Shown here in pieces: positions 7,941-39,664 of a stretch of DNA of 64,000 nucleotides; positions within the stretch are counted from its first letter, which is position 1; each line of letters starts with the position of its first letter. The stretch lies in the NCBI GenBank assembly GCA_002716355.1, contig PBAU01000002.1, positions 22,411-86,410 of the forward strand, written 5' to 3'. This DNA is from a bacterium (GTDB lineage Bacteria; UBP7; UBA6624). The notes beneath the pieces were generated by a model. It saw only the letters and a list, made by a program, of their open reading frames with translations. It was not told the origin of the DNA and did not search any database. Made by a program: the position numbers and the translations under genes.

Positions 7941-7973
7941 AGCATCATCACCCTGTATGTTTCTATTCAGGAA

Positions 7974-9311: not shown

Positions 9312-9374
9312 AGTTCACAAACCTCCAAAAAAATAGTTACTCTATTAGATTATAGGGATATATTTGTTTTCTGG

Positions 9375-10266: not shown

Positions 10267-10277
10267 TTAATATTGCT

Positions 10278-10360
10278 GCCGGTGTGGCGGAATGGTAGAC
10301 GCGACGGACTTAAAATCCGTTGTCCGCAAGGACGTGGGGGTTCGAGTCCCTTCGCCGGCA
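10278..10360 (+). tRNA. tRNA-Leu, anticodon TAA (class II, long variable arm)
   Basis: 83-nt cloverleaf. The acceptor stem is GCCGGTG/CGCCGGC, the anticodon stem ACGGA/TCCGT with loop CTTAAAA, the long variable arm TGTCCGCAAGGACGT, and the T loop TTCGAGT. The discriminator is A. The gene is contiguous, with no intron. Confidence 0.85.
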
Positions 10361-10371
10361 TGCTTAATATT

Positions 10372-12011: not shown

Positions 12012-12892
12012 GGTAAAACACTTAAGGCAAAACTTGTTGTTAACCATGTTATAAACATGAAAACAACCACCGTACCCATTTCACCATGTTTTTGTTTGAA
12101 GATATGGTGAATGTGTCTTTGATCAGGTTGGGATATTTTTTTAAATAATTTTAAAAGTGTTCTTTTTTCCCCTTTCCTGAAGGGGGCCCTTCTTATAATA
12201 GCCCAAAAAACATCCAGGAAAGGCAAAAAGAAAAACAAAATAAAAAATTGAAAATGAATATCTGGATCAAATAATTCAGGTCCTCCAATTTGTGTAATTG
12301 AAATCCAAAATGCTATTGATCCGAGCAACAATGATCCGGAATCACCAAGATAAATGTGTTTATTTTTCAAACTTGAATAACCAGCCCCCAAAACAATAAA
12401 AGAAATTGCGAAATGCTGTCCTGACTGAAGGAATAAAACAAAACACAAAAGGGGCAGTAAACCATTAACACCGTCTAGAAAGTTAAACCCGTTAATGACT
12501 AACAACCCTAAAAGCAACAAAAAAACTAACTGATTTAAATTTAAATCGAAATTAGACAAAAACCAACAAATAACAATGGCTTGTAAAAACAATTTTTTTA
12601 AAGCTTTCATGTCGTGCAAATCGTCAAAAAAACCTATCATGAAAAACCCAAGAAATAAAAATGGCACATAAGGTGTTAAGAGCTGTATATCGATGCTGAG
12701 ACTGTCATAAATGAAAAAACATGCAAATAAACCAAACACAATTGCCCAGCCTCCTACAAGTCTTCCGGGGTTGTTCTTGTTTCCTGTTTGTCTTTGTTTG
12801 AAAATGTCTGCATCCTTAGAGCTCTTAGAAAAATAAAAAGACAGACATGTTGTCAGGGTGAATGAGAAAATTGCGGTAAAAAAATCAGTCAT
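12008..12892 (-). CDS. Polyprenyl-phosphate N-acetylhexosamine-1-phosphate transferase (MraY/WecA, glycosyltransferase family 4)
   Basis: Polytopic membrane protein with GFFDDLHDM, FNFLDGVNGL and YLGDSGSLLLG motifs typical of the family. Confidence 0.7.
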   Translation of the reverse strand: MTDFFTAIFSFTLTTCLSFYFSKSSKDADIFKQRQTGNKNNPGRLVGGWAIVFGLFACFFIYDSLSIDIQLLTPYVPFLFLGFFMIGFFDDLHDMKALKKLFLQAIVICWFLSNFDLNLNQLVFLLLLGLLVINGFNFLDGVNGLLPLLCFVLFLQSGQHFAISFIVLGAGYSSLKNKHIYLGDSGSLLLGSIAFWISITQIGGPELFDPDIHFQFFILFFFLPFLDVFWAIIRRAPFRKGEKRTLLKLFKKISQPDQRHIHHIFKQKHGEMGTVVVFMFITWLTTSFALSVLP

Positions 12893-22849: not shown

Positions 22850-23989
22850 ATGAATTCGAAAAAAATAAATCAGAAACAAAAAAAATCATTTGGGGTCGAT
22901 CAACAAACAGCATTTGAAGTTCTGTATCATCCATTATTGAAAGCCAGGTTGCTTGACGAAAGAATGGTCAAGCTTTTTAATCAAGGTAGATTTGGTGGTA
23001 CATATTTTAGTGGTTGTGGTCAAGAGGCAACAAATGTTGGTGCAGGTGTTCACATGGTTGAAGGTGACATACTTGCTCCATCACATAGGCAACTAGGGGC
23101 CATGGTTGCTAGAGGTATAACCGCTAAAAGAGTGTTAGCACAAGTTTATTCAACAGCTGAATCGCCAGATGGAGCTCAGCAGCACCCATGTCACTTTGGA
23201 GACCCGGAACTTGATATTGTTAGTCCCACAGGACATGTGGCGATACAGGTTGTTTTAGCTGCAGGTTCAGCCTACGCATATCTTTTAGATGCGTACAGAA
23301 AAGGCGATGTGAAAATCAATTGGGACAAAGATGGAATCGTATGGGCTGGAAACTGGACGCTTAAAAAGGGATCCAAGCTCAATTGCGCTTTTGCATTTTT
23401 TGGAGATGGCGCAACAGCAAAAGGGGATTTTCATGAGTCTGTGAATTTTGCTGGAATACACAAATTACCAGTAATTTACATGGCTGAAAATAATATATGG
23501 GCAGAGTCTGTTCACGTTACCGAGAATGTGCCTGTTGAGAGGTTAAGCGATAGAGCAGCTGCATATGGAATGCCCGGAGTTACTGTTGATGGTCAGAATG
23601 TTTTTGAGGTTTATCACGCAGTGCAGGAGGCAGTTGAACGTGCTCGCTCTGGTGGCGGGCCAACCCTTGTTGAATGCTTGACTTATCGTTACCATGGACA
23701 TTCCATGATTGATCCAGCTGATTATCGAACAGATGAAGAGGTTGAAAAATGGAAAAAGAGAGATCCTTTAATTGTTTTTGAACAGGTAGCTAAAGAGGAT
23801 GGGATTTGGAGCGATAAACTCGCAAAGGAAACAGAAGACAGAATCAATAATGAGATTGAAGAGGCGATTGATTGGGTTGAAGATGAATCAACTAAACCCA
23901 AACCCGATCAATTCATTGATGTAACCTTTAGAGATCCAAAATTTAATGATGCAATTCGCAAGAGATGGGAGAAGAGAAAAAATGTCTAG
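22850..23989 (+). CDS. 2-oxoacid dehydrogenase E1 component, alpha subunit (TPP-dependent; pyruvate, branched-chain or acetoin type unresolved)
   Basis: TPP-binding region FFGDGATAKGDFHESVNFAGIHKLPVIYMAENNIWA and YRYHGHSMIDP. Confidence 0.85.
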   Translation: MNSKKINQKQKKSFGVDQQTAFEVLYHPLLKARLLDERMVKLFNQGRFGGTYFSGCGQEATNVGAGVHMVEGDILAPSHRQLGAMVARGITAKRVLAQVYSTAESPDGAQQHPCHFGDPELDIVSPTGHVAIQVVLAAGSAYAYLLDAYRKGDVKINWDKDGIVWAGNWTLKKGSKLNCAFAFFGDGATAKGDFHESVNFAGIHKLPVIYMAENNIWAESVHVTENVPVERLSDRAAAYGMPGVTVDGQNVFEVYHAVQEAVERARSGGGPTLVECLTYRYHGHSMIDPADYRTDEEVEKWKKRDPLIVFEQVAKEDGIWSDKLAKETEDRINNEIEEAIDWVEDESTKPKPDQFIDVTFRDPKFNDAIRKRWEKRKNV

Positions 23990-25013
23990 TAAAAATATTA
24001 GTTATATCCAGGCAATTACAGACACAATGTGGTCTGAAATGGAAATTGATGAAACGGTTTTTGTCTTAGGTCAAGATTGTGGAAGATATGGAGGCGTGTT
24101 TAAAGCCACAGCCTGGAGGTCGGAAAAAGACGGCAAACCTGATTTAAGTAAAAAAATGTATGATGAATTTGGACCATTGAGAGTTCTTGATGCACCTTTG
24201 GCAGAAAATGCAATCATCGGTGGTGCAATTGGTGCCGCTTTGTCTGGTTATAGGCCAATTGCTGAGATTCAATTTATGGATTTTATTGATTGTGCTATGG
24301 GCCATATCGTGAACCAAGCAGGCACTATCTCTTTTAAGACTAATGGTAGTTGGTGTTGCCCAATTACAATTCGCACCCCTTATGGTGGAGGTATTGGCGG
24401 TGGTATGACCCATAGCCAAAGCAATGAAGCTTGGTTTTGTCATGCTGGTGGTCTAGTTGTAACCGCACCCAGCACACCAAGAGATGCAGCAGGGCTTTTA
24501 AGATCCTGCATTAGGGCAGATGATCCTTGTGTGTATATTGAGCACAAAGGTTTATATCGAGCTATAACTGGTGATGTGCCTGATGATCCCAACTTCACTA
24601 TTGAATTAGGAAAAGGAAAAGTTGTTCGAGAGGGTAGTGATATTACATTGATTTCTTATGGCGCCATGTTGCACAAATGCTTAAGTGTTGCAGAAAAACT
24701 TGAATCTGAAGGCGCCAGTGTTGAGATTATTGATCCTCGAACATTATGGCCAATGGATGAAGATTTAATGATTAACTCTGCTTGTAAAACAGGCAGGTGT
24801 GTGGTTGTTGCTGAGTCACATGCGGCGTATGGTTTCACTAGCGAGGTTGCCGCAAGAGTGCAAGAGGGTGCCTTTTGGAACCTATTAACACCAATTCGTA
24901 CTATTGCAGGACCAGACACACCCTTCCCTTTTGAACCGGGAATGGAGGCTGCTTATCTGCCTTCAGATGATGAAATATACAACTCTTGTAAAAGAGCGTT
25001 GGGGGACGGATAA
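23982..25013 (+). CDS. 2-oxoacid dehydrogenase E1 component, beta subunit
   Basis: MSSKNISYIQAITDTMWSEMEIDETVFVLGQDCGRYGGVFKAT is a typical E1-beta N-terminus. I trimmed the track ORF (23946) to the ATG at 23982, which overlaps the E1-alpha stop by 8 nt. Confidence 0.85.
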   Translation: MSSKNISYIQAITDTMWSEMEIDETVFVLGQDCGRYGGVFKATAWRSEKDGKPDLSKKMYDEFGPLRVLDAPLAENAIIGGAIGAALSGYRPIAEIQFMDFIDCAMGHIVNQAGTISFKTNGSWCCPITIRTPYGGGIGGGMTHSQSNEAWFCHAGGLVVTAPSTPRDAAGLLRSCIRADDPCVYIEHKGLYRAITGDVPDDPNFTIELGKGKVVREGSDITLISYGAMLHKCLSVAEKLESEGASVEIIDPRTLWPMDEDLMINSACKTGRCVVVAESHAAYGFTSEVAARVQEGAFWNLLTPIRTIAGPDTPFPFEPGMEAAYLPSDDEIYNSCKRALGDG

Positions 25014-26251
25014 TGCCAATTAAAGTTCCAGTTCCCGATCTAGGTGTTTCTGTTGTTGAAGCCAAAGTGGCCGAATGGAAGAAAAAAATAGGTGATGATG
25101 TTGTTCGTGATGAAGAGATTGGTATATTGGAAACAGACAAGATAACAACCCCAATTACAGCATTCAAAGAAGGGAAACTTGTAGCACTTTTTGCAAAACC
25201 TGGGGATACCGTTCCCGTGGGACAAACTATAGCAATTATCCAAAAAGTTGGAGAAAATTTATCCCAAGAAGATATTGATAAGTTGAATCCACATGGTTCA
25301 AAACCGACACCGGAACCGACACCGGAACCGACACCGGAACCCATTAAAACAACTGTTGACACCAAACGTCAAGGCTCAAATCCCCAAACCCTTAAAACCA
25401 GTCCAGCTGTTAGAAGGTATGCGAGTGAGAATGACATTAACCTGGTTGATGTTCAAGGCACTGGCTCTAATGGAAGAATCCAAATGGCTGATGTTTTAGC
25501 GTTTAAAAAACCAATCAAATCTACGGGTTTAAATTTAGAACCTGATAATACTGAATCCAGAAGTCCTGTCAGCAGCTCCATGGCTGTTATGGCAAAACAT
25601 ATGGTTCACTCAGTGTCAACCAGCCCGCATTTTTTAATTGTTGATGAACTTGACATGACTGAAACATTGGCTGTATATAAGAATTTAAAACCAAAATTGC
25701 AAGAAAGCGGAATCAGGTTAACACTCATGAGCTTTTTTGTCAGAGCAGCAGCACAAGCGCTTAAGGATTTTCCAAGAATGAATGTTTCTCTTGAAAAAGA
25801 CACTTTGATAACCAAGAATTATAGAAATATAGGAATGGCAGCTAGTGTTGGGGAAAGTTTGATAGTGCCTGTTATCAAGAATGCTGATCTTTTAAATATT
25901 GAAAATCTTGCAGCTGAAATCAACAGATTGTCTATTGCCGCTCAGGAAAACAAATTAACAATGCAAGACATTACAGGTGGAACATTCACAATCACCAATG
26001 CAGGCATGTTTGGAGGCCCGTTATTTTCAGCACCTATTATCAATCAGCCTGAAGCGGCTATATTGGGTATTCACACAGTGAAAGAAAGAGCTGTTGTTGA
26101 GAATGGAAATATTGTTGTAAAACCAATGGTTTATGTATCCCTTTCAAGTGATCACAGAATGGTAGATGGCGTTTTAGCTGTTAGGTTTTTATGCAGGGTT
26201 AAAGAGTTGCTTCAGCATCCAGGCTTAATGGCAACTGGACCTCTTTTATGA
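25013..26251 (+). CDS. Dihydrolipoamide acyltransferase (E2)
   Basis: One lipoyl domain (LETDKITTPI), a PTPEPTPEPTPEP linker, a peripheral subunit-binding domain (SPAVRRYASENDINL), and a catalytic domain with SSDHRMVDG. Confidence 0.9.
   Translation: MPIKVPVPDLGVSVVEAKVAEWKKKIGDDVVRDEEIGILETDKITTPITAFKEGKLVALFAKPGDTVPVGQTIAIIQKVGENLSQEDIDKLNPHGSKPTPEPTPEPTPEPIKTTVDTKRQGSNPQTLKTSPAVRRYASENDINLVDVQGTGSNGRIQMADVLAFKKPIKSTGLNLEPDNTESRSPVSSSMAVMAKHMVHSVSTSPHFLIVDELDMTETLAVYKNLKPKLQESGIRLTLMSFFVRAAAQALKDFPRMNVSLEKDTLITKNYRNIGMAASVGESLIVPVIKNADLLNIENLAAEINRLSIAAQENKLTMQDITGGTFTITNAGMFGGPLFSAPIINQPEAAILGIHTVKERAVVENGNIVVKPMVYVSLSSDHRMVDGVLAVRFLCRVKELLQHPGLMATGPLL
25304..25342 (+). repeat. Three perfect tandem copies of a 12-bp unit (CCGACACCGGAA) inside the E2 gene
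   Basis: Read directly at 25304-25339, followed by CCC. It encodes the (PTPE)n interdomain linker. Confidence 0.9.
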
Positions 26252-27624
26252 AATATGACTTGGTTGTGATAGGTGCTGGCCCAGGTGGCTATGTGTGTGC
26301 TTTACGGGCAGCACAACTCGGCTTAAAGGTAGCTGTTGTTGAAAAGAAAAAAGCGGGTGGAACATGTTTGAATGTTGGTTGCATACCATCTAAAGCTTTA
26401 TTGGATTCAACAGAAATTTTTTCTGAAATTTCACCAGGGAACGAACATGGAATAGAGGTCAGCAAAGCTAACATTAACTGGTCGACCCTGCAATCCAGAA
26501 GGGAAAAAATTGTTACCCAATTAACAGGTGGTGTTGAATTTCTTTTAAAAAAGGCTAAGGTTGATTATTATCAAGGATTTGCAGATGTGAAATCTTGTTA
26601 TACGGTTGTTGTTGGCAGGAATAATCTTGCAACTAAAAATGTTGTTTTGGCCACCGGATCCACACCTGTAGAAATTCCATTTTTGCCATTTGATGGAGAA
26701 CATGTTATAAGTTCAACCGAAGCTCTTAATCAATTCAATATACCCAAAAGTCTTATTGTTGTTGGAGGAGGTTATATAGGGTTAGAAATGGCCAGTGTTT
26801 ACAGCCGAATCGGAACCCATGTCACAGTAATTGAGATGATGGATCGGATTGTTCCATTGATGGATACAGATATAAGCAAGCAGTTGCAAAAATCATTAAG
26901 AAAACAAGGCATCAAGTTTAAAACATCAACCAAGGTGACCGATTGCAAGAAAACAAAAAATAAAATTATTTTAAATTTAGAAAAAAACAAAAAAACAAGC
27001 ACACAGGAGGCTGATCAAGTTCTTGTTGCTGTAGGTCGTCGGCCTAATGCAGGGGGTATTAACCTCAATGCTTTAGGAGTCACAATGGATGAGAGGGGGT
27101 TTGTTTCTGTAAATCAAAACATGGAAACATCCATACCTGGTATTTATGCCATAGGCGATTTGGTTCCAGGTCCCATGCTTGCACATAAAGCCAGTGAGGA
27201 AGGGGTGGTTGTTGCCGAAAGAATTGCTGGCAAGCAAACAACACTTGACTATAGCTTGATTCCATCTGTAGTTTACACACACCCTGAAGGCGCTTCTATT
27301 GGTAGAACCGCAGATGAGCTTAAAAAAGCCAACGTAGAATTTAAAACAGGTATGTTTCCGTTTTCTGCATCCGGAAGAGCTATGGCTATAGGTTGTACTG
27401 AAGGTTTTGTTAAGGTGTTAGCAGATTCCAAAACCGATAAGGTTTTAGGGGTCCATATATTAGGGCCGAAAGCTTCAGAATTAATATCTGAAGCAGCAAT
27501 GGTGATGGGCTTCTGTGGCACTGCTGAAGACATAGGTGTGTTTATTCACGCGCACCCAACACTTTCGGAAGCATTAAAAGAAGCCGCTCTTGAAGCTTCT
27601 GGTCATGGTGCGATTCATACCTAA
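26248..27624 (+). CDS. lpd: Dihydrolipoyl dehydrogenase (E3)
   Basis: GAGPGGY, redox disulfide GGTCLNVGCIPSK, and a C-terminal HAHPTLSE. Confidence 0.95.
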   Translation: MKYDLVVIGAGPGGYVCALRAAQLGLKVAVVEKKKAGGTCLNVGCIPSKALLDSTEIFSEISPGNEHGIEVSKANINWSTLQSRREKIVTQLTGGVEFLLKKAKVDYYQGFADVKSCYTVVVGRNNLATKNVVLATGSTPVEIPFLPFDGEHVISSTEALNQFNIPKSLIVVGGGYIGLEMASVYSRIGTHVTVIEMMDRIVPLMDTDISKQLQKSLRKQGIKFKTSTKVTDCKKTKNKIILNLEKNKKTSTQEADQVLVAVGRRPNAGGINLNALGVTMDERGFVSVNQNMETSIPGIYAIGDLVPGPMLAHKASEEGVVVAERIAGKQTTLDYSLIPSVVYTHPEGASIGRTADELKKANVEFKTGMFPFSASGRAMAIGCTEGFVKVLADSKTDKVLGVHILGPKASELISEAAMVMGFCGTAEDIGVFIHAHPTLSEALKEAALEASGHGAIHT

Positions 27625-27823: not shown

Positions 27824-28534
27824 ATGCAAGACAAAAAAATGCCTCTGTCCGAGCATTTTGCTGATCTGCAAAAAACTTTATTAAACAGTCTTCTTTATTG
27901 TTTTTTTGCCTCTGTTTTGCTGTCCTTTTTTCATAAGGAATTATTAATTGCTTTTCAAAAACCACTAAACAATGTCGGAATTACTGCGTTAAATGTTTTA
28001 TCTCCACAAGAGGGGTTCCTCATCCCCATCAAGTTGGTTTTAATGTGTGGTTTAATTGTGGCAACACCTTTGATTGTTAGAGAGGTTACCTTATTTGCCT
28101 GGCCCGCATTAAGGCAAAATGAAAAACAAATACTTCAAACTTTTGTAATCCCAAGTTTTTTAATTGCACTTGTTGCAGCGTTTTTTGCTTGGCAGGTTTT
28201 AATACCAATATCAATTGAATTTCTGCTCAAGGCAACAACAAACAATAACCTACAAGCAACATGGACATTGCAATATTGGTTTGTTTTTGTTCAATCTATG
28301 TTGATTGCCTCTGTGGCTGCTTTTCAACTGCCAATAGTCATGGGGGTTTTAGCTAAATTCGGCTTAATTGACTCACATACGGTCCGGGAAAAAGGCCCAC
28401 ATGCAATTATTGGGCTATTGATATTATCTGGTTTTATAACCCCTCCAGATGTTGTCACGCAGATCATTATCGCCATACCATTAATCCTTCTGTTTTATTT
28501 CAGTATTTTCATAGTCAAGGCAAACGAGGATTAA
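27824..28534 (+). CDS. tatC: Twin-arginine translocase subunit TatC
   Basis: N-terminal MPLSEHFADLQKTLL and six hydrophobic segments, directly after tatA. Confidence 0.85.
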   Translation: MQDKKMPLSEHFADLQKTLLNSLLYCFFASVLLSFFHKELLIAFQKPLNNVGITALNVLSPQEGFLIPIKLVLMCGLIVATPLIVREVTLFAWPALRQNEKQILQTFVIPSFLIALVAAFFAWQVLIPISIEFLLKATTNNNLQATWTLQYWFVFVQSMLIASVAAFQLPIVMGVLAKFGLIDSHTVREKGPHAIIGLLILSGFITPPDVVTQIIIAIPLILLFYFSIFIVKANED

Positions 28535-28603: not shown

Positions 28604-30925
28604 ATGGCACGAATAGGTGTTTTTCTTAGCAAAGAGGGAAAAGGTTTAGATCCGCTTAACCTACAAACCATTGCTGACAGATTGGTTGAGGAAGTGCAGG
28701 AGATAAACCATGTTTTTATACATGAAGACCTCAACACAGTTCAAGGTTTGGAAGCAATATCACAAGAGATCAAAAATCAAGATATTGGCTATGTTGTTAT
28801 CGGTTGTGGCTCTATTGATCAAAGGGAAGAGAATATCAGAAAAACATTGAATACAGCTGGCATTAACGAATACCTTTTGGAGGTTGTTAATCTTAAAGAA
28901 ATGGTAGCTAACGTGCATTCAGAAGAGCCCGAGAAAGCCAATGAAAAAGCTTTTCAGCTATTGAAAACAGCAGTTATCAAGGTTGAGCAAAGTAAACCTT
29001 TAGAAAAAACACCAATGAGGGTGGAACAACAAGTTTTAGTTGTTGGCGGCGGTGTTGCAGGCATGACTGCTTCTTTGAGAATTGCAGATGCTGGCTACAG
29101 TGTTGTTTTAGTTGAAAAGTCACCTGCATTAGGTGGAAAAGTTGCCTCTCTCAAAAATCTTTGGCCAAAACTCGAAGAGGCAGATGACTTAATGAGGAAT
29201 CTTTCAATCAGTTGTCATCAACATGAAAATATAGTTATTTATGATTATTCAGAAGTTAAATCTATAGACGGAGTTCGTGGGGATTTTGATGTTGAAATAG
29301 TCAGAAAACCAAGATTTGTTCAAAGTCAAAAAATTGTAAATTTTGAAAAAATTACAGAATCATTAAAAACGGATTTTCCAAATAAGCACACCGGAGGCAG
29401 GACGGTGAACAAGGTTCTTTATCAACCATACGCAGGCTGTGTCCCACCATTGTTTTTGATAGACCCAGAAAATATAAATCATCCAGATGTCAAAAAGTTA
29501 ATCACACTTGTTCCTGATGGAACTGTGAATCAGAACGAAAAGGAAAAAATCGTTCATGAAAAAGCAGGTGCTGTGATTATGGCTTTTGGAGCTGGGATGA
29601 TGGATTGTTCTGGCTTAACAAATTTAACTGCTGCAAATAGTGAAAATGTACACAGTGCTAGTGATTTTGAATTTTTGAATTTCAAAAAAGACGAAGAAAT
29701 GTCGTTGTTATGGGTTGCAGATGCAGGAAGCAATGATCCCAAGAACGGTGTTGCTTACGCTTCCGAAGTGCCTTTGATGACCTGTGTCAAACAGGCTATT
29801 TTTGCTAAAAAAATGTCTAATGGAAAAATTCACACAACAGTTGTTTACTCAGATAGGAGATCCAGAACAAAAGGATATGAAGAATTTATCAAAACCGCTG
29901 AGGAAAAATACCAGGTACAGATGGTTAGAGGCGCTGTTTCAAATGTAACTTCAAAGTCAAACGGGTTGTCTGTCAGCTTGCACGATTTAATACAGGGCAA
30001 AGAGCAAAAGGTATCAGTTGACAAGGTTGTTTTGGCACAAGAGGTTGTTGCACACGATGATTCACAACATCTAGCAAGTATTGTTGATATAGGTCGTGAC
30101 GAAACAGGCTTTCTTGCTGAAACCCATCCTTCTCTGGAGCCATGTTCAACCAGTAATTCTGGAGTTTTTGTTTGTGGAGACTGTGCGTCTCCCGGTGATA
30201 TCAGAGCTGCTGTTTTGACAGCTGAATCAGCAGTTGCTAAAGCTATGGCCGTTTTGGCCCAAAAAACAAGTGAGCCCTACAGGTTAAAACAAAAAGATGA
30301 GCAACTTGCACGATTTGATGCTCCAGCAAAAGAGGTTTCTCCTGAGAGCTTTCAAACAAATGATGAAGGTGGCATGAATTACACAAGATTAAATAATGTT
30401 TTTGGTAAAACTGAAAGCGGTGTGTCCATACCAGCCTCACCAACCAGAAACATTGAACTTGCTGGTTGGGAGCTTTCTAAGTCAATTGCAGAAATTGAAA
30501 ATATTTGGACAGATGCAAAAAATGACAACTGGGAACCAAGAATAACAGGATTTGCATCACAGTATGGTGGTTATCCACTTTTGGAAACACTTGGAAGAGA
30601 GGAGGTTTCTTATTCATCTTGTTTTAGATTTCTGAGAGTGCGCTCAACAGCACATCTGGATCCACTCCTTGTCCTCAAAAGCTTCTTTAATGGTGCAGAT
30701 GGTGTGTTTATTATTGGTGGACCTTTAGGCAAAGGCAAGTTTCACAACGACAACTACCTTGCAAAAAGAAGATTTAAAGCATTAGAAGGGGTGCTTGATG
30801 CTGGTGGGATTGAGCCAGATAGAGTCAAGATTTTATTTGTAGATTCTCACCAAATTGATGAAGTTGCTGATCAGTTGCAAAAATTCCATAATGCTGTCTC
30901 TAGCTTAGGCCCTTTAGGTATTTGA
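28604..30925 (+). CDS. HdrA-like flavoprotein fused to an MvhD-like domain, lacking the Fe-S cysteine motifs
   Basis: 773 aa. The N-terminus RIGVFLSKEGKGL...VVIGCGSIDQREENIRK...AGINEYLLEVVNLKEMVANVH is colinear with the HdrA N-domain (recalled consensus KIGVxVCHCGxNI...VVVAACSPRxHE...AGLNPxLxExANIRExCSWVH). The FAD motif VLVVGGGVAGMTASLRIADAGYSVVLVEKSPALGGK is intact. WVADAGSNDPKNGVAYAS stands where CVGSRD...YCS is expected. The C-terminal 130 aa (30533-30922) are colinear with MvhD/FlpD but contain no conserved Cys. GGAGG lies 7 nt upstream of the ATG. Confidence 0.7.
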   Translation: MARIGVFLSKEGKGLDPLNLQTIADRLVEEVQEINHVFIHEDLNTVQGLEAISQEIKNQDIGYVVIGCGSIDQREENIRKTLNTAGINEYLLEVVNLKEMVANVHSEEPEKANEKAFQLLKTAVIKVEQSKPLEKTPMRVEQQVLVVGGGVAGMTASLRIADAGYSVVLVEKSPALGGKVASLKNLWPKLEEADDLMRNLSISCHQHENIVIYDYSEVKSIDGVRGDFDVEIVRKPRFVQSQKIVNFEKITESLKTDFPNKHTGGRTVNKVLYQPYAGCVPPLFLIDPENINHPDVKKLITLVPDGTVNQNEKEKIVHEKAGAVIMAFGAGMMDCSGLTNLTAANSENVHSASDFEFLNFKKDEEMSLLWVADAGSNDPKNGVAYASEVPLMTCVKQAIFAKKMSNGKIHTTVVYSDRRSRTKGYEEFIKTAEEKYQVQMVRGAVSNVTSKSNGLSVSLHDLIQGKEQKVSVDKVVLAQEVVAHDDSQHLASIVDIGRDETGFLAETHPSLEPCSTSNSGVFVCGDCASPGDIRAAVLTAESAVAKAMAVLAQKTSEPYRLKQKDEQLARFDAPAKEVSPESFQTNDEGGMNYTRLNNVFGKTESGVSIPASPTRNIELAGWELSKSIAEIENIWTDAKNDNWEPRITGFASQYGGYPLLETLGREEVSYSSCFRFLRVRSTAHLDPLLVLKSFFNGADGVFIIGGPLGKGKFHNDNYLAKRRFKALEGVLDAGGIEPDRVKILFVDSHQIDEVADQLQKFHNAVSSLGPLGI

Positions 30926-30928: not shown

Positions 30929-31822
30929 ATGAATGAAATGAGAATAACAATCCAACGAGAAGCCAGAAGGCTTTTACAGCTGCAAAAAGTCAGCGTTGTT
31001 ATAGGTTATGAGGTTGGTCCATACCCTGGCACGACCGCTCCCTGTTTCGCTTTCACCCCAGATGACGCTCAAAGAATTGTTTTCAATAGCTTTTCGTCTA
31101 TCAATTTAGCCGTTTATCTTCCAGGCATTACTGGAAATGTTGGCATAGTGGCCACACCTGCAACTGTAAGATCCATCAAAGAGCTCGAAAAAGACGGCTT
31201 GGTGAATCGTAAAAATCTGCATATTATTGGTGTGAAATTTCCAGGAATATTAGATCCTCGACATTTAAATGTTGACAGAGAGAACGAAAATACGTTATCA
31301 GTCAATGAGCATCCAGAAGCTTTATGGGAGTGGGCACTTCATGATCTTTACGAGGAGCCAGAAGATTATGACATACTTGTTGAGCCCAGGTGGATGAATG
31401 ACCTCAGTAAAGCCGGCAAACTAAAAAAACCCACCCCAAACCGTACCAGCGTTGAAAGGTTAGAGCAGATGACTCATCACGAAAGAAGGCTATACTGGAT
31501 GAGTTATTTTGAAAAACATAGGCATTCAGACCATAATAAAAATTTATTTCCTTCCACTTATGCGGGAGGAGACCATTTAGAAAAGTTTAAATATATCAAA
31601 TCTGCATATAGCTCGAACGAGCTTTTTTACGAACATCTTTCATGGGTTTACCAATCGATGGGTCGAGCTTCTGGCTTCGATCTCTCAGACCTTACAGAGG
31701 ACATGAATCAAATACCCCTTTCAACAATTCGAGCTTGGGCTGCTAGAGAGTTTAGAAAAAATTTTAATTACAGGCCAGGTGGGGAAGAGCCAAATCCATT
31801 ACTGAAAAAGGAAAACATATAA
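30929..31822 (+). CDS. Hypothetical protein resembling the Fe-S subunit of FrhB/FlxC/HydB-type oxidoreductases, with a single Cys
   Basis: 297 aa. VSVVIGYEVGP...NLAVYLPGITGNVGIVATPATVRSIKELEK...NLHIIGVKFPGIL resembles the recalled (V/I)GxPCxxRA...(I/V)GxxCxG layout with the cysteines replaced. It starts 3 nt after the upstream stop. The family assignment needs an HMM search. Confidence 0.35.
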   Translation: MNEMRITIQREARRLLQLQKVSVVIGYEVGPYPGTTAPCFAFTPDDAQRIVFNSFSSINLAVYLPGITGNVGIVATPATVRSIKELEKDGLVNRKNLHIIGVKFPGILDPRHLNVDRENENTLSVNEHPEALWEWALHDLYEEPEDYDILVEPRWMNDLSKAGKLKKPTPNRTSVERLEQMTHHERRLYWMSYFEKHRHSDHNKNLFPSTYAGGDHLEKFKYIKSAYSSNELFYEHLSWVYQSMGRASGFDLSDLTEDMNQIPLSTIRAWAAREFRKNFNYRPGGEEPNPLLKKENI

Positions 31823-31823
31823 C

Positions 31824-32846
31824 ATGAGCGACTATATTTTGTCAAAAGCTAAATTGAAATATTGGTTAGAGGATGTCAGAAAACGAAATGAACTATGGGC
31901 ACCCGTTGGATCCAAAGGCGCTGTAAGTTATTTGAAAAATCCAAAAGGTGAAAATGTTGCAACAGATTTTACAAATAGTTTGGATTGTCCAAAGTATATA
32001 TTTTGCCCACAGCAAGATGCCATATGCAACTATGAGATACAAGGAAGAGGCAAGGTTGCTATTGAGGAAGTTGAGCTCGATGTGACTCCTAGAGTTGTAT
32101 TTGGCTTACGGCCACCAGACATTAGAGGCATCGAAATTCTCGATGCTTACCTGTTGAAAGATCAAATTGATCGGAGATACGAGGCAAGGCGAAAAAATAC
32201 AATAAATATTTGTCTTGGTTACCATAACCCACCTCCTTGCTGTTTCGCAGAGTCTGTAGGTGTCGATCTTTTTCCCAAGAGTGGCTCTGACATTTTGTTA
32301 ACTGATATTGGTAGGAGTTATTATGTTGAAACACTTTCTGAAAAAGGAGATAGCCTGATCTCGGAACATTTCAATGAAGCTGATGATATTGTTCGAAATG
32401 AAGCCTGGGATATACAGAAGGGAAGTGAAGGAAAAACAAATTTTGATTTAAATTTGAATCGTTGGCAGGATTTCACTGATACTGAAATTTACACTTTGCC
32501 GTATTGGGATGAAATTTATTTGGGCATTATTGCTGATTCTGTCGCAACCAGGTATTTTTACTCAGGAACTTATTTTAAGATTGTTGATGTTAACAGTGGA
32601 AACAAGGGCACAAGGTATAAAACCTGGACAACAATGTATTCTCCAGGCTTTTCAACATTGGCAAATGGTTATGACTACAAGCCAAGCCTCAAGGAAAAAT
32701 TTAAAGATTGGATATTAGAAATGTTTCATTTTTTTCCAAAAAGACATGGTTTTATTGGCTGTTCAGGTGCGCACAGGTGCATTGCAGGCATGACCACCAA
32801 GCATGACCTGAGAAAAATTATTTCTAATGTGGACTTTGGAATATGA
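31824..32846 (+). CDS. AsrA / sulfhydrogenase-beta (HydB, FlxB)-like protein with degenerate ferredoxin motifs
   Basis: 340 aa. ELWAPVG..., CPKYIFCPQQDAICNY, VVFGLRPPDIRGIEILD (expected GxRPCDxxAxxxLD), RRYEARRKNTINICLGYHNPPPCCFAES, and FIGCSGAHRCIAG (expected CVGCGRCxxxCP). There is no CxxCxxCxxxCP motif. Confidence 0.5.
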   Translation: MSDYILSKAKLKYWLEDVRKRNELWAPVGSKGAVSYLKNPKGENVATDFTNSLDCPKYIFCPQQDAICNYEIQGRGKVAIEEVELDVTPRVVFGLRPPDIRGIEILDAYLLKDQIDRRYEARRKNTINICLGYHNPPPCCFAESVGVDLFPKSGSDILLTDIGRSYYVETLSEKGDSLISEHFNEADDIVRNEAWDIQKGSEGKTNFDLNLNRWQDFTDTEIYTLPYWDEIYLGIIADSVATRYFYSGTYFKIVDVNSGNKGTRYKTWTTMYSPGFSTLANGYDYKPSLKEKFKDWILEMFHFFPKRHGFIGCSGAHRCIAGMTTKHDLRKIISNVDFGI

Positions 32847-33619
32847 ATTTAGTACCAAAGATAGCAAATATAAAAAATACAGAACGGGATGGTCGTTTAG
32901 GGTCAATATCATTTGATTTTGATGGGGACCTGAAGGCCGGACAGGTTTTCAAGATAGGGACCTTTGGAAAAGGAGAAACAACTGCTTGGGTCATAGATGC
33001 GGAAGATAAAACCGTAACCGTTTCGTTTCTGGATAACAACCCTGTCACACATAAAATCATGCTCCTTCCCACAGATGAATGCATTACTGTAAGAGGGCCA
33101 TTTGGCAATGGTTTTTCACTTTTAGATGAAAGAAATATTTTATTAATTAGTCAAGATGATGGAATATTAAGCCAAAAGAAACTTATTAATGATTTGCTCC
33201 AAAATGGTAATCAGGTCAGCTTGCTCCACTTCACCTCTTTTCCAAAAGATATATTTATGAGCTCTTCACTTAAAAAAGCTGTATCAGATGACTCTCCTAT
33301 CAATGGTGAAATTATCGATATGACAAAAAAAGGACCACAGGATTTAGATACGTTTATCAAATCTTGCATCAAGGCAAGTTACACCTCCGGAATAAACGCA
33401 GTGGCTCTATCAGGCAATGAGAATTTTCAGCAGTCTGTGTCGAGGGTTCTGGAGAAAACAATGATTAAAGATAAAAGCATACAAATTTTATTTAATCGTA
33501 ATTTTGTTTCAGGAATGGGTTGGTCTAACAAGGATCTTTACGGTACCACAAACATATGGAAAGAAGGGCCAGTATTTACATTAGATCAGGTTCGAAGATT
33601 CCCAGGTGTATTCATTTAA
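32843..33619 (+). CDS. PyrK / AsrB / HydG (FlxA)-like ferredoxin-reductase-fold protein lacking the 2Fe-2S and dinucleotide motifs
   Basis: 258 aa. VRGPFGNGF is the PyrK-family hallmark. The expected GGxGxxP reads ISQDDGILS. The C-terminal cluster site reads VSGMGWSNKDLYG where CGxGxCxxC is expected. There is a 4-nt overlap with the upstream gene. Confidence 0.55.
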   Translation: MNLVPKIANIKNTERDGRLGSISFDFDGDLKAGQVFKIGTFGKGETTAWVIDAEDKTVTVSFLDNNPVTHKIMLLPTDECITVRGPFGNGFSLLDERNILLISQDDGILSQKKLINDLLQNGNQVSLLHFTSFPKDIFMSSSLKKAVSDDSPINGEIIDMTKKGPQDLDTFIKSCIKASYTSGINAVALSGNENFQQSVSRVLEKTMIKDKSIQILFNRNFVSGMGWSNKDLYGTTNIWKEGPVFTLDQVRRFPGVFI

Positions 33620-34720: not shown

Positions 34721-35644
34721 ATGAATCGTTTAAAAAGCATAAATCTACGTTTTTTGTTGATGCCCTTTGTTCTGGCTTTTATTTTTGCTTTTGAGGATAT
34801 TGACACTAAAGAGAAGTCAAGCGAGGAGTTATGGGTTGTAAATTTTTTAGCTGAAGGAGTGGTTTTACCACCCGGTCAGATAGATTTGCCAAAAATAACT
34901 ATCGATTACACAAAAACTGACCATGCCAAAATTGCTAAGAATCTTTTGGGTGCAGACATAGAGGCAGAAACCTCTGTCGGTTTAACCAGAGTTATCGATC
35001 AGGGTTTTCAAACATATGCAACCGAGGACGGCCGAGAATTATTGGTTTTTCCTCATGGTGGAATCACATTTAACCATCCTTTTGCCGGGGTGCATGAGTT
35101 GTTCCCATTAACCCGCACACAGGCAGAAAGTGTTCTGGATATTTTTAATAACAATTTTAATTATTTTCCAGAAGATGCCTCACTGGTCAATACAGGAGAA
35201 ATTAAACATCCAGAATATCAGTCTTTCAACAACAGTCAAGGATTACCGTTTGGTTACATTTATGAATATGGGCGTTATTTTAAAAATGTTCTCATTAAAA
35301 ATGATGTAGTCAGGGCTTTAGTGGTTGGCGGAAGAGTTTGGGAATTTTCATTTTCCTGGGGCGATCAGCCTGTTGAGATTGAAGACACTGAGGCAACAAT
35401 AATCCCAGCATGGTCTGCAGTTAAGGATGCCATCGAGTATGCGTATAGGAATTTTTACGCTGGAGAATATTACGCAGATGTATTTGTTACCAAGGTTCAA
35501 CTTGTTTATACTTTTGATGGCCTACAGGAGGCATGGAAAAAGGATGAACCAAAAAGATTAGTTCCGGCATGGGTGGTCCAGATAAATAAATCGAATGAAA
35601 TTATCTTAGAAGCTTTCACCGGTCAAGTTATTCCCATTTATTAA
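34721..35644 (+). CDS. Hypothetical exported or membrane-anchored protein
   Basis: 307 aa with an N-terminal hydrophobic segment (LRFLLMPFVLAFIFAF). No family recognised. Confidence 0.45.
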   Translation: MNRLKSINLRFLLMPFVLAFIFAFEDIDTKEKSSEELWVVNFLAEGVVLPPGQIDLPKITIDYTKTDHAKIAKNLLGADIEAETSVGLTRVIDQGFQTYATEDGRELLVFPHGGITFNHPFAGVHELFPLTRTQAESVLDIFNNNFNYFPEDASLVNTGEIKHPEYQSFNNSQGLPFGYIYEYGRYFKNVLIKNDVVRALVVGGRVWEFSFSWGDQPVEIEDTEATIIPAWSAVKDAIEYAYRNFYAGEYYADVFVTKVQLVYTFDGLQEAWKKDEPKRLVPAWVVQINKSNEIILEAFTGQVIPIY

Positions 35645-35690: not shown

Positions 35691-36803
35691 ATGAGTTCCA
35701 CCGAAGCAGGAGATGTTGTTGCCCAGGCTATACTTCAAAAATACCCTAAATCAAATGTATTTGTTAAGAATTTTGCAGATGGTGGTGAGGGAACGGCAGA
35801 TGTCCTGTTGGATTATTTCGATCATGAAGCTCACAAGGTTAAAACCCAAGGTGCCAACGGGAAGGATATTGATGCTTATTGGTATTTTTTGAAAAAAGAA
35901 AAAGTAGCCCTGCTAGAAATGGCTTCAATTGTCGGGATTTCAATGATTCCCAAGTCCGAATTAGATCCAGAGGCTTTAAGCACTTGCGGTCTTGCTCCAG
36001 TTATTATTGACATTCTTGAAAAAGGTATTAGAAAAATCTGGTTTACTGTTGGCGGAACCTCAACGGTTGATGCTGGACTTGGCTTGCTGAAAGGGATGGG
36101 CGTTTCCACACGGGAAGGGACATTTCCTAATTCATTATTAGCAGTAAAGAAAGATATTTTTTTTGATTTTAAAAATTTAGATTCGATGATTTCAGATCTT
36201 AAAATACACCCAGCAAAAGGCAGCTGTTTGTTTCCTGATGTTTTTTTTGATATAATAGCTGATGTTCGCGCTCCTCTTTTAGGTAAGCGAGGTGCTGTTT
36301 TGGCTTTTGGCAAGCAAAAGGGTGCTACCCCTAAAAATATTCCTATTTTGGAACAAGGGATGGCTGATTTTGCTTGTATGGTTGAAGCCAAAGTCGAGGA
36401 CTCGACCTTTTTGCAAACAAAAGGTTTGGGTGCTGCTGGCGGCATCGCTCTTGGGCTGGCCTTGCTTTTTAACGTGAATATTAAAAATGGAGCTGATTTT
36501 GTTATTGACAAAATGGGGCTCAGGGACGAGATGAGTAATTTTGATTTTGTGATAACAGGAGAGGGACAGTTTAACTCTCAAACCAAACAAGGGAAAGGGC
36601 CATGGTCTATTGCATCACTAGCTGTAAGTAATAGCACCCCAGTTTTGATTATTAGTGGTTTGAAAATTAAAGAAAGAAACAAAACAAAAGATTTTTCTTT
36701 CTTGGAGGTTTCTCAGACAGTCCCAAGAAACAAAAAAGAGGCACAATTAAATCTTTTCCAAGCTATGAGTGGATGGCTTGATGATAATGAGGTGAAAAAA
36801 TGA
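35691..36803 (+). CDS. Glycerate kinase (start codon problematic, see findings)
   Basis: FADGGEGTADVLL and FVITGEGQFNSQTKQGKGP match glycerate kinase signatures. The conserved N-terminal DSFKG motif is encoded in frame upstream of the first ATG (35691). Confidence 0.8.
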   Translation: MSSTEAGDVVAQAILQKYPKSNVFVKNFADGGEGTADVLLDYFDHEAHKVKTQGANGKDIDAYWYFLKKEKVALLEMASIVGISMIPKSELDPEALSTCGLAPVIIDILEKGIRKIWFTVGGTSTVDAGLGLLKGMGVSTREGTFPNSLLAVKKDIFFDFKNLDSMISDLKIHPAKGSCLFPDVFFDIIADVRAPLLGKRGAVLAFGKQKGATPKNIPILEQGMADFACMVEAKVEDSTFLQTKGLGAAGGIALGLALLFNVNIKNGADFVIDKMGLRDEMSNFDFVITGEGQFNSQTKQGKGPWSIASLAVSNSTPVLIISGLKIKERNKTKDFSFLEVSQTVPRNKKEAQLNLFQAMSGWLDDNEVKK

Positions 36804-39664
36804 AACAAAACAAAGTAATTGATATGGGTTTGATTATTACTGAAACCTTTGCAGGTATTATGCAGAAAAATATTGCAAAAGCAGGAACTTTAAAAGATCT
36901 AGAAGCCAGTTTTTTAGAATATGAGGATGCTATTGGTTTAGATGCAAAAATATTTGTTAAAAGATATGCTATGAAGTTTTTATCAAATTGTGCTTTTATA
37001 AAAAAATGGGATGATGGTTGGGTTTTAGTTCCTCATAAGCTAAAAGCACACAAGCTAGCAAGAGAAATACTAGAAGAAAGCGGATCTTTTATGTTGGAAT
37101 CCAAAATAAGAAGCCAAGTTGCTAAGCGACTCGGACAGAAAGTTAGTGAGACAAAGTTATATCTAGATATAGATGATGATTTTTCATTGGCGGAAGGCTT
37201 AAGGCAGGAAGATCAAATAGGCAGAGGTGCCATTTGGGGTTTGTGTGAATGGGTTTTGATTAATAATTTAGCAAAAACCCTTATTGAATCCCGAGGTCCA
37301 ATGAAAGAAAAAAGAATCATCAGCACATTGATCGAGAATGATTTAGTTACACAGGAAAAACAACCTGTTTTTTGCCCGCAGATAGACAAGAGATTTATAG
37401 CTGAATCAGGTAATTCATGGGATGTAGGAAAGGCAAAAAAGCAACCCCTTCAGACACCTAAAACCGGAGCTTTGGAGACCAAGATAAGAGAGGAGATAAC
37501 AAGCAAGGTAGAAAGATTGCTGGAGAATCAGGCATCAGACAAGAGTTTTTCAAAACAGGAGATTACAACTGCCCTGATTGGTAGTGCAAAAAGTTCTAAA
37601 GGTTCTCATTACCAGGACATGCTGGACGAGATCCTTTCTGTTTTTGAGAAATCTAAAAAGATAACCAAGGTTCGATTCGAACTTAAAAACCCATATTGGA
37701 TTAAGTCTGAAAGCCTGCCAAAGATAGATGTAAAAAAATTAGATCTAATTTTTCCACTCCCATATTCCGAACATCAGCTTTTGGGAGACGATATATTTAA
37801 TGAAAATCTTTTTGCAAATCTCTCTGATCCAGCTTTGTATTGGTTGGACGGGGATTTTTCCGAACAGGGTTTTCCTGAGGTGGAGCCATTGTTTATTTTA
37901 ACTTTCAATGACTTTGTAAATGACGAGTTAAACTACATATCACAACCATTGGTTAATGCTATTCAGGCTTCATTGCTTGCATCTAATGAGTGGGGTGAAT
38001 TTGTTTTACAAACACCCGACAAGCAAGAGCTTTCTATTTTGATTAATTTTAAGCATCAAATAATTTCAGGTATGGCATCCTGGGTTAATGGCTATGCCCA
38101 ACCTGGTGATGTTTACAATTTCGAATATCTCGGATCATCTACTTTCAGGCTTGTAAAAAATAAAGAGATTAAAAATCCATCACTAGATGACGATGAACTA
38201 GAAAGATTACTCTCCTTACAGGCAGAGAGCAAACTAACACTCAAAAAACTTGTAATTGAAGTTTTAAAACATCACCCAGGTGGTTTAACCTTCAGCGGTA
38301 TATTTAATCGCTTAATGTTTATAAGAAGAATTTCAAGAAGATCTTTAATGAGTGAGTTGACAAAATTCTTTTGTTTTGATTGTAAAGATGATAAATGGAA
38401 ATATTATGAAAAAAGATCTGACCTAGGAGAAAAGTTTTCTGCTAGCTCTTTTCCAATTGCTGGTTTAAATACCAATTGTTGGATATTGCGTGAGGAAATG
38501 CAGCCCGAAGTTGGGGATTCATTGAATATGGTTTATGGGAAAGCAGCACATAATGATTTGTTTTGCATTGTTAATCCAAAAAATCAACTTACCAGTGTGT
38601 TTCGATTAGCCGTTAAAGGTAAAAAATGCACAATTCAAGATATTACAAGCTGTGAGCCAATGCCTTTAGATAATTTTGATATCCCAAAAGCAGGTCTGAA
38701 TCAGATTGAGAATTCAGTTTTTTGTGACATTAACGAAGAGCTTGAAAGGGAGGTTTTGGATTCCGAAGTTTACGCAGGAATTAAGCAGGCCTTCACGACA
38801 TTTGAACCTAATCCAAGTGTAAACCAGGAGGTTACAAGAAGCTTAGAGGAGCTAGAGAGTCTTTTGGAGGATTCTGGTTCCGTTAGTCCATTCGGTGGCT
38901 TGGCATGGCAACTTCAGCAAAAATTTACCTGGCAGGAATTTCAAAAAGTTTTAGACTCAAAGATTTATTCTCAAGAGCATGAGGACCGTTTGGATGCAGG
39001 CAAGTTTGCAAGCTGGATGGCGAAAAGACCAATAGCATGGGACTCCGAATCGATTGTTTATCCAGCTGGACATGGGGAATTGTCAATCTGCATTCTGGAA
39101 GCATTGATTTCCATAATGCAAAATGCTGATTACACCATAGAGGAAGATTCACTTAACATTAGAACAGCCCTTAATAGCGATTTTGTTTTTAACTGGAGCA
39201 AACTGTTGTCAGACCAAAGAAGAATCAAGAAGATTGTTGACATGGAAGATAGTTTTGAATTAGTTGAATTTTTATCTGGCTGGTTTAGACGAGTAGCCAA
39301 GATTATTGAACCTAGAAAATTAGAAAGTGTAATTAACAGGTTAAGTTTTCACCTGAAAGGTATCGGATCTGTCGATATTAGCGATAAGGATTTGCCAGAA
39401 TATTTAAAATCAGAAAAATCTTCCCTGACAGGTCTAAGTCTTTCTGGAGACAAGCAAGAAAAATCTGCAACTTTGTTTGCAGATTTTAGAGGATTTTCAA
39501 AAGCCAAGATTAAGAAAACATTAAGCCTAGCACCTTCAGTTCTTGTTGATGGGGGACTGCTTGTTTTTGTTTCATTTGAAAATCAAAAAGTAAACTTTAA
39601 AAATGGAAAGCTAGAGGACCAGATCTCAATGGGTTCAATAGTTGCTAAATCTTATATCGTTTAA
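36800..39664 (+). CDS. Large hypothetical cytoplasmic protein (954 aa)
   Basis: Uninterrupted ORF with a 4-nt overlap with the glycerate kinase gene. I saw no P-loop, nuclease or methyltransferase motifs. Several segments look like winged-helix/HARE-HTH modules (for example LAKTLIESRGPMKEKRIISTLIEN and LVIEVLKHHPGGLTFSGIFNRL). Confidence 0.5.
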   Translation: MKQNKVIDMGLIITETFAGIMQKNIAKAGTLKDLEASFLEYEDAIGLDAKIFVKRYAMKFLSNCAFIKKWDDGWVLVPHKLKAHKLAREILEESGSFMLESKIRSQVAKRLGQKVSETKLYLDIDDDFSLAEGLRQEDQIGRGAIWGLCEWVLINNLAKTLIESRGPMKEKRIISTLIENDLVTQEKQPVFCPQIDKRFIAESGNSWDVGKAKKQPLQTPKTGALETKIREEITSKVERLLENQASDKSFSKQEITTALIGSAKSSKGSHYQDMLDEILSVFEKSKKITKVRFELKNPYWIKSESLPKIDVKKLDLIFPLPYSEHQLLGDDIFNENLFANLSDPALYWLDGDFSEQGFPEVEPLFILTFNDFVNDELNYISQPLVNAIQASLLASNEWGEFVLQTPDKQELSILINFKHQIISGMASWVNGYAQPGDVYNFEYLGSSTFRLVKNKEIKNPSLDDDELERLLSLQAESKLTLKKLVIEVLKHHPGGLTFSGIFNRLMFIRRISRRSLMSELTKFFCFDCKDDKWKYYEKRSDLGEKFSASSFPIAGLNTNCWILREEMQPEVGDSLNMVYGKAAHNDLFCIVNPKNQLTSVFRLAVKGKKCTIQDITSCEPMPLDNFDIPKAGLNQIENSVFCDINEELEREVLDSEVYAGIKQAFTTFEPNPSVNQEVTRSLEELESLLEDSGSVSPFGGLAWQLQQKFTWQEFQKVLDSKIYSQEHEDRLDAGKFASWMAKRPIAWDSESIVYPAGHGELSICILEALISIMQNADYTIEEDSLNIRTALNSDFVFNWSKLLSDQRRIKKIVDMEDSFELVEFLSGWFRRVAKIIEPRKLESVINRLSFHLKGIGSVDISDKDLPEYLKSEKSSLTGLSLSGDKQEKSATLFADFRGFSKAKIKKTLSLAPSVLVDGGLLVFVSFENQKVNFKNGKLEDQISMGSIVAKSYIV

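Follow-up and report, generated by a model that had tools for sequence, protein, structure and literature searches.

Cluster-less FlxC- and FlxB-type subunits in a conserved Hdr/Flx-like operon of marine UBP7 bacteria

Introduction

Iron-sulfur (Fe-S) subunits that serve as electron wires are normally thought to be useless without their clusters. In the FlxABCD-HdrABC, or hdrCBA-mvhD-flxCBA, systems of anaerobic bacteria, the HdrA-MvhD-FlxC-FlxB-FlxA arm normally holds on the order of a dozen such clusters, and the canonical gene order hdrC-hdrB-hdrA-mvhD-flxC-flxB-flxA is seen in an Armatimonadota metagenome-assembled genome (MAG) and in a Latescibacteria-like contig. The Flx subunit names, as applied to FlxABCD-HdrABC of Desulfovibrio vulgaris Hildenborough, reportedly come from Ramos et al. 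2015 (cited in PMC5861303), and their use here is backed by gene order and domain content only. We analyzed an operon of this type in a 64,000-nt stretch of contig PBAU01000002.1 (assembly GCA_002716355.1; hereafter the window) from an uncultured marine bacterium of the GTDB lineage UBP7/UBA6624, with emphasis on two of its genes, whose products of 297 and 340 residues (p297 and p340) are homologs of Fe-S subunits that have lost nearly all of the expected cluster ligands.

By both profile and fold, p297 has its closest solved relatives in FdhB and ElpB of the Fdh-Hdr-Fmd and Elp-Hdr complexes (7bkb_E, 8rvu_E, 9t1s_M). These subunits dock beside MvhD and HdrA in their complexes, and the position of the p297 gene agrees with that arrangement. 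ElpB and FdhB carry flavin adenine dinucleotide (FAD) and four [4Fe-4S] clusters and oxidize F420H2 (PMC12350162); p297, in contrast, has no Cys ligands, is ~80-115 residues shorter, and fails the Pfam thresholds. For p340, the closest solved relative is HydB of Pyrococcus furiosus (9nez_B/9nf0_B), the beta subunit of sulfhydrogenase I (SHI). A gene for a putative HydG-like partner comes next, as in SHI, but its product lacks the [2Fe-2S] cysteines and the NAD(P) glycine loop. p340 itself has lost the ligand sets of the CxxCxxCxxxCP motifs as well as the RPCD/CFC ligands, and neither hydrogenase subunits nor AsrC accompany it. The nearest precedent for what we propose is ElpA, a truncated FdhA homolog without the molybdopterin domain that is part of the Elp-Hdr complex (PMC12350162). 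ElpA is a catalytically dead subunit that has been kept for the architecture of an arm associated with Hdr, but it still sits in a working Fe-S wire, whereas every subunit of the arm encoded in the window has lost its clusters. Our literature search found no paper describing an Fe-S-free Flx/Hdr-type complex.

Results

Two Fe-S-subunit homologs within a four-gene Hdr/Flx-type operon

The window genome (G000) is about 1.26 Mb in size, 87% complete, and has a G+C content of ~38%. The genome collection used here includes 8 species genomes of this phylum, all marine MAGs (Tara Oceans, NIOZ-UU series, and others) of 1.0-2.1 Mb; six belong to the window's genus, one (G006, MAG NIOZ-UU106) to another genus of the same family, and one (G007) to another family. 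The operon is present with intact reading frames in all eight. In the window, its genes are as follows.

28604..30925, plus strand: HdrA-MvhD (FlxD) fusion, 773 aa, FAD dinucleotide motifs present, Fe-S ligands gone
30929..31822, plus strand: p297, 297 aa, cluster-less FlxC/FdhB/ElpB-type subunit
31824..32846, plus strand: p340, 340 aa, HydB/FlxB/AsrA-type subunit without ferredoxin clusters
32843..33619, plus strand: p258, 258 aa, HydG/FlxA/AsrB/PyrK-type subunit lacking both the Cys motif for [2Fe-2S] and the glycine motif for NAD(P)

The genes are tightly packed, with a 3-nt gap between HdrA-MvhD and p297, a 1-nt gap between p297 and p340, and a 4-nt overlap between p340 and p258, and from this spacing we predict a single translationally coupled operon. 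A scan for promoters and terminators gave signals at chance level, and no transmembrane segment or signal peptide was found in any of the four proteins. In protein set and gene order the operon is like the FlxABCD-HdrABC clusters, and the homology runs over the full length of every subunit. It differs from them in its cysteines (4/81 retained; see below), in the loss of the FlxA-like glycine motif, in the fusion of HdrA with MvhD, in the absence of HdrB and HdrC from the genus, and in belonging to an aerobic host with a genome of ~1.3 Mb.

The fusion protein matched NCBIfam HdrA2 over its full length (3.7e-116) and Pfam FlpD at aa 647-769 (5e-24), and among structures in the PDB it matched 5odc_A (3e-68) and 5odc_D (2e-18). 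For p258 the matches were NCBIfam PyrK (1.4e-13) and AsrB (3e-11) and the PDB chain 9nez_C (4.9e-6).

p297 is a full-length FlxC/FdhB/ElpB-type protein with one cysteine

A reading of the sequence made before this analysis, without database searches (the sequence-only reading), had proposed that p297 and p340 are Fe-S-subunit homologs whose ferredoxin motifs have been erased. Both open reading frames (ORFs) were as it described them; p297 contains 1 Cys residue and p340 contains 8. The single Cys of p297, C39, is not at a ligand position. In searches of Pfam and NCBIfam, p297 gave no family at E<=1 other than a noise-level MarR match, and it fell below the PF04432 and Fer4 gathering thresholds. 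An exhaustive phmmer search nevertheless recovered 302 homologs (E<=1e-3), and the full-length ones (~280-330 aa) carry PF04432 (FrhB_FdhB_C) and 4Fe-4S dicluster (Fer4) domains; 95 of 109 full-length homologs have 15-22 Cys, compared with 1 in the window protein. A profile of the p297 family matched FdhB/ElpB chains in the PDB (9t1s_M, 3.6e-43; 7bkb_E, 6e-39; 8rvu_E, 1.5e-36). The AlphaFold model of p297 had a mean predicted local distance difference test (pLDDT) score of 77 and a predicted template modeling (pTM) score of 0.75, and with this model Foldseek returned the FdhB/ElpB chains 8rvu_E and 7bkb_E at the top, followed by FrhB, HCAR, and Fsr. p297 is therefore a full-length homolog of the FlxC/FdhB/ElpB type, composed of an FrhB-like N-terminal half and a former-ferredoxin C-terminal half. 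Its parts are listed here.

30929..31273, plus strand: FrhB-like N-terminal domain, aa 1-115, pLDDT 83-97
31469..31714, plus strand: former 2x[4Fe-4S] ferredoxin region, aa 181-262
31475-31534, plus strand: His-rich patch, within the former ferredoxin region
31550-31579, plus strand: conserved PSTYxGGDHL segment, within the former ferredoxin region

Residues 1-115 are the best conserved part, with 70-76% identity between genera compared with 38-55% for the remainder. At the ligand positions of this domain, KPCD has become ATPA(TV) and CPG has become (K)FPG, and the strings ATPATVRS and GVKFPGIL, quoted in the sequence-only reading, were found in the protein. In an alignment with cluster-bearing homologs, the columns of one CxxCxxCxxxCP motif now hold H/S/N/F, those of CxCxxC hold T/A/D, and those of the other CxxCxxCxxxCP motif hold A/F/S/E; a C..C pair now reads A..D. 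Several replacement residues are fixed between genera (S56, A78, F104, D139, F207, F250, and S253).

The segment ARRLLQL of p297 was considered as a Tat (twin-arginine translocation) signal and rejected. It forms the N-terminal helix of the domain, which is confidently modeled, the same helix is present in canonical homologs, and no hydrophobic h-region follows it. We also note an unrelated-looking protein of 302 aa with 3 Cys (P0133) that has a basic N-terminal extension and an FrhB-like N-terminal domain homologous to that of p297. Its KGCD is now KYFD and its C terminus is different and not ferredoxin-like. Possibly, then, the family has degenerated a second time, independently, in this protein.

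p340 is a HydB/FlxB-type protein with remnants of its ferredoxin motifs

p340 scored 33.1 bits against Pfam Fer4_22 (cut-off, 27) and had full-length NCBIfam matches to ShyB (6.8e-19), HydB (2e-17), and AsrA (2e-9), all of them below the equivalog cut-offs (ShyB NF040829, 68/690 bits; HydB NF040833, 63/750; AsrA TIGR02910, 37/323). Its family profile matched the P. furiosus sulfhydrogenase I beta chain 9nez_B at 4.7e-69. With the p340 model, the only significant Foldseek match was again this beta subunit (9nez_B/9nf0_B), with an E value of 3e-20, a TM score of 0.79, and 356 aligned columns. By descent, p340 is a HydB/FlxB/AsrA-type subunit. Of the AsrA/HydB label given to it earlier, HydB (and with it FlxB) is the better fit, as the AsrA score is weaker, AsrC is missing, and the context is HdrA-MvhD. 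One public record labels a gene of this kind as "4Fe-4S dicluster domain-containing protein."

The p340 strings on which the sequence-only reading relied were all located: ELWAPVG at aa 23-29, VVFGLRPPDIRGIEILD at 91-107, CLGYHNPPPCCFAE at 130-143, WDEIYLGIIADSVATRYFYSG at 228-248, and FIGCSGAHRCIAGMT at 310-324. RPCD has become RPPD at 32109-32120, and three further segments mark the former cluster sites.

32211..32252, plus strand: CLGYHNPPPCCFAE segment, aa 130-143, former N-terminal cluster region
32505..32567, plus strand: remnant of the first ferredoxin motif, WDEIYLGIIADSVATRYFYSG, aa 228-248, all four Cys gone
32733..32807, plus strand: remnant of the second ferredoxin motif, FPKRHGFIGCSGAHRCIAGMTTKHD, aa 304-328

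In the first motif, the canonical C..C..C...CP columns are now I235, D238, A241, and F245, at a place where the G007 counterpart retains CIECGACTFACP. The second motif retains C313 and C319, with C316 replaced by A and C323 by M. The claim that both ferredoxin motifs were erased is thus right for the first and too strong for the second, which keeps two cysteines flanked by invariant His residues. P98, F245, A316, and M323 are replacement residues fixed between genera. For p297 and p340 alike, column conservation showed the canonical Cys columns replaced, and the best profile, HMM (hidden Markov model), and Foldseek matches all lay in the FdhB/ElpB and HydB-type families rather than in unrelated ones, which bears out the proposed homology.

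Ligand loss extends over the whole operon and is specific to it

We compared the four proteins with a canonical hdrC-hdrB-hdrA-mvhD-flxC-flxB-flxA cluster, that of the Armatimonadota MAG, which served as a yardstick of 81 Cys columns. The columns retained in the window were as follows.

HdrA: 2 of 30
MvhD: 0 of 5
p297: 0 of 19
p340: 2 of 17
p258: 0 of 10
Whole operon: 4 of 81

G006 was nearly identical to the window in this respect, and G007 retained 40 of the 81. Since only 4 of the 81 canonical cysteines remain over all subunits, the loss of cluster ligands, as judged from aligned columns, is operon-wide. The loss first noticed in p297 and p340 is correct for these two genes but reaches beyond them to the whole four-gene operon.

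In p258, the CGIGKCGHC of 9nez_C is aligned to SGMGWSNKD. The glycine loop that would bind NAD(P), nicotinamide adenine dinucleotide or its phosphate, is gone as well (LLISQDDGILS, compared with LLIAAGLGTAP in 9nez_C or FIGGGIGMAP). The HdrA-like part of the fusion keeps its FAD motifs (GGGVAG, LVEK-P-LGG, and a C-terminal G-D motif), and by these motifs its FAD site would be the only clearly preserved cofactor site in the complex.

We considered whether the host had lost Fe-S metabolism globally or was generally depleted in cysteine, and rejected both. SufB/D is encoded in 8/8 genomes of the phylum, and in the window genome the ferredoxin and radical-SAM motifs of other ORFs are intact. The genome-wide Cys fraction is an ordinary 1.1%. 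Because Fe-S motifs are intact elsewhere in the host and its Cys content is ordinary, the Cys loss is specific to the operon.

The operon genes are under strong purifying selection

Ratios of nonsynonymous to synonymous substitution rates (dN/dS) were taken from the comparison of the window with G005 only, as dS is near saturation beyond this closest pair.

p297: 0.021
p340: 0.032
HdrA-MvhD: 0.040
p258: 0.036
Neighboring E2, Lpd, and TatC: 0.03-0.05
RsmA and glycerate kinase: 0.07-0.18

p297 and p340 are 94-95% identical to their counterparts in G005 and 55-60% identical to those in G006, which places them among the best conserved genes of the neighborhood. With dN/dS at 0.02-0.04 and intact frames throughout, the operon genes are under strong purifying selection and are not decaying.

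The cluster-less proteins have a single origin, with an intermediate in G007

In a maximum-likelihood tree of 103 p297 homologs, the cluster-less proteins formed one clade (Shimodaira-Hasegawa-like approximate likelihood ratio test, SH-aLRT, 100) with a long stem (1.08 substitutions per site) and short internal branches. The sister of this clade was G007/P0011 (14 Cys), with P0012 (13 Cys) branching next out, and the group of all three (support, 99) was nested among canonical proteins with 15-19 Cys. Cluster loss therefore has a single origin. Three other low-Cys proteins were rejected as a second cluster-less lineage. Two of them, P0143 and P0105, resemble gene calls with frameshifts, and the third, P0026, carries a deletion. 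A pattern scan of metagenomes (Tara, JGI, and NCBI records) added only 6 loci, all of the same clade; the lineage is thus rare in metagenomes.

G007, with its 40/81 Cys, is a true intermediate. Still present there are the ferredoxin domain at the C terminus of HdrA, both FlxB ferredoxin motifs, most of FlxC, and the FlxA [2Fe-2S] motif, and HdrA and MvhD are separate genes.

L012 (G007:C13:26000-44000), 7525-12728, minus strand: G007 operon, HdrA and MvhD as separate genes

Three losses are common to both families, namely, those of the HdrA N-terminal cluster, of the FlxC CxCxxC (now a common YxGGD), and of the FlxA glycine loop, and are therefore older than the family split. At the N-terminal site of p340, G007 keeps KPCD and has lost CFC, and the window's family has lost the Cys of PC and keeps CC; the losses at this site are independent in the two families. 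As some losses predate the split and others are independent, the data suggest that the common ancestor could already do without the wire function but still had a use for the proteins.

The canonical partners are absent from the genus

A CCG-domain (HdrB-type) protein was found in none of the six genomes of the genus. A true [NiFe]-hydrogenase large subunit was found only in G007; the PF00374 matches in the genus were below the cut-off and NuoD-like. AsrC was not found, and the operon is without a hydrogenase, AsrC, or HdrBC gene. Because these partners are missing from the genus, we rejected a sulfhydrogenase, Asr, or Hdr catalytic function for the complex. A heme-copper oxidase subunit I is encoded in 8/8 genomes of the phylum.

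Separately, G007 has a [NiFe]-hydrogenase large subunit beside several CCG-domain (HdrB-like) genes at G007:C1:67325-74279. This may be a canonical Mvh/Hdr-type cluster, one that has been lost in the window's genus.

Genomic neighborhood

Directly 5' of the HdrA-like gene lies tatC.

27824..28534, plus strand: tatC, conserved upstream neighbor of the HdrA-like gene

This adjacency is seen in the window, G006, and G007, that is, in both families of the phylum (window, 27824-28534; L001, 6095-6772; L012, 12817-13539, minus strand). The two genes overlap by 4 nt in G006, and the upstream gene of G007 is TatC by its Pfam match (4.6e-65). The arrangement is kept though the operon proteins are only ~35% identical between the families. 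It may be inherited synteny, and tatC probably does not belong to the complex.

A complete 2-oxoacid (pyruvate) dehydrogenase (PDH) operon, encoding E1 alpha/beta, E2, and E3, precedes tatA-tatC and the four-gene operon (window, 23946-27624 and upstream; L001, 1-5796). Further upstream of the PDH genes, G006 has genes for a lipoate ligase and for a radical-SAM protein (likely LipA), and an E2 gene lies near the operon in G007 too. Downstream in the window, a 307-aa ORF (34721-35644, plus strand) is conserved in G006, where its counterpart has no Pfam match; the same holds for a 954-aa ORF (36800-39664, plus strand) that follows glycerate kinase. In G007, the operon is followed by the gene for an 814-aa PKD/fn3/AhpC-TSA protein.

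Discussion

A scaffold around an FAD-binding core

Taken together, these data suggest that p297 (FlxC-type) and p340 (FlxB-type) would be subunits of a former Hdr-Flx electron-transfer complex whose [4Fe-4S] ligands were lost in what may have been a single ancient episode in one small bacterial lineage. Under this proposal, the two proteins would no longer be part of an electron wire, and purifying selection would have kept their folds. Their role would be structural and non-conducting, within a soluble complex of ~187 kDa made up of four proteins (the HdrA-MvhD fusion, p297, p340, and p258), with the putative FAD-binding HdrA-like subunit as its core. The four proteins would still assemble and FAD would still be bound, and the complex probably has a new role, either flavin-only or non-redox. 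We give the reading of p297 and p340 as non-conducting scaffold subunits around an FAD-binding HdrA-like core a probability of roughly 0.6.

Several points weigh against it. Expression and assembly of the four proteins are predicted from the genes, sequence motifs alone speak for bound FAD in the HdrA-like subunit, and the proposal assigns the complex no positive function. The ratios that speak for selection come from a single pair of genomes. The model of p340 is confident for aa 1-200, but pLDDT is below 50 over most of 205-340, and because of this, retention of the fold in the ferredoxin half is judged mainly from the full-length Foldseek alignment. Finally, the invariant Cys/His set of p340, described next, could bind metal, in which case "non-redox scaffold" would be wrong for this subunit.

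Remodeled metal sites in p340

The alternative that fares best is that the former cluster sites of p340 were remodeled to hold a structural Zn, a mononuclear Fe, or a [2Fe-2S] cluster through H308/C313/H317/C319/H327, and possibly H134/C139/C140, and that a short redox or sensing path was thereby kept beside the FAD of HdrA. Across the cluster-less clade, all eight of these residues are invariant (13/13 members). Two of them, H317 and H327, occur in this clade only, where canonical and G007 sequences have G and I, and they lie in the part of p340 that is most conserved between genera (aa 301-340, 67-77% compared with about 50-55% elsewhere). Judging by this pattern, one or two of the former sites may have been rebuilt as putative Cys/His sites. 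However, the model is unreliable in this region (pLDDT <50), each former cluster has lost two of its four ligands, and the conservation could equally reflect a subunit interface. A further difficulty is that nothing like this Cys/His set exists in the other three subunits, which would leave a center in p340 with no electrical connection to the FAD of HdrA. We regard remodeled sites as possible but clearly less probable than a non-conducting scaffold.

Other alternatives

A more radical alternative treats the complex in its entirety as a pure pseudoenzyme. Even the FAD of HdrA would then be non-catalytic, and the role of the complex would be structural, regulatory, or chaperone-like and possibly Tat-linked. 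The position of tatC immediately upstream in both families despite the divergence of the operon proteins fits this idea, as does the loss of the p258 glycine motif for NAD(P)H, which leaves no obvious electron donor, and the absence of HdrB. However, strict conservation of the dinucleotide-binding motifs in the HdrA-like subunit would be surprising for a useless flavin, and signal peptides and membrane segments are absent from all four proteins. The tatC adjacency may also be inherited synteny, given that PDH genes lie nearby in both lineages too. We therefore consider a pure pseudoenzyme unlikely.

Two further explanations carry little weight. The sequence-only reading had raised the His-rich patch of p297 (HHERR...HRHSDH, aa 183-202) as an alternative metal site, and a new site here could in principle replace the first ferredoxin cluster, there being seven His residues within 183-216 of the window protein; but H184 (K/P) and H197 (N/A) differ even among members of the genus, H183, H199, and H202 give way to other residues (P, E/D/P) in the clade's other genera, and of the two invariant residues, H216 and H236, the latter is invariant in cluster-containing homologs too, so we think such a site very improbable. 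Least credible of all is that the genes are decaying relics of a shift to aerobic life or an artefact of assembly or binning, for while the heme-copper oxidase in all genomes and the missing HdrBC and hydrogenase partners in the genus would suit decay, the dN/dS ratios are equal to or below those of housekeeping neighbors, the frames are intact in 8/8 streamlined genomes of a kind that discards useless genes, the replacement residues are conserved between genera, and the same sequences recur in independent assemblies (Tara, NIOZ, JGI, and ENA).

Implications

Although nearly all of their ligands are gone, the four subunits change at the slow pace of core metabolic genes, and the genome that encodes them is very small. 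With G007 as a comparison stage, the lineage offers a natural experiment on what scaffolds of the Hdr, Flx, and sulfhydrogenase type do without iron, and it is relevant to the reuse of anaerobic redox machinery by lineages that enter oxic, iron-poor water. It also calls for caution in annotation, as genes such as these are no evidence of electron bifurcation, of heterodisulfide or sulfite/sulfur reduction, or of hydrogen metabolism. More tentatively, and at odds that we place well below those of the scaffold reading, the former Fe-S arm HdrA-MvhD-FlxC-FlxB-FlxA may have become an iron-free machine with a new, lineage-essential function, its cluster pockets either plugged by conserved Phe and Ala or, in p340, rebuilt with Cys and His. 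If this is true, Hdr/Flx proteins would have given rise to a new functional class, such as a flavin-based sensor or enzyme in aerobic bacteria of the iron-poor ocean.

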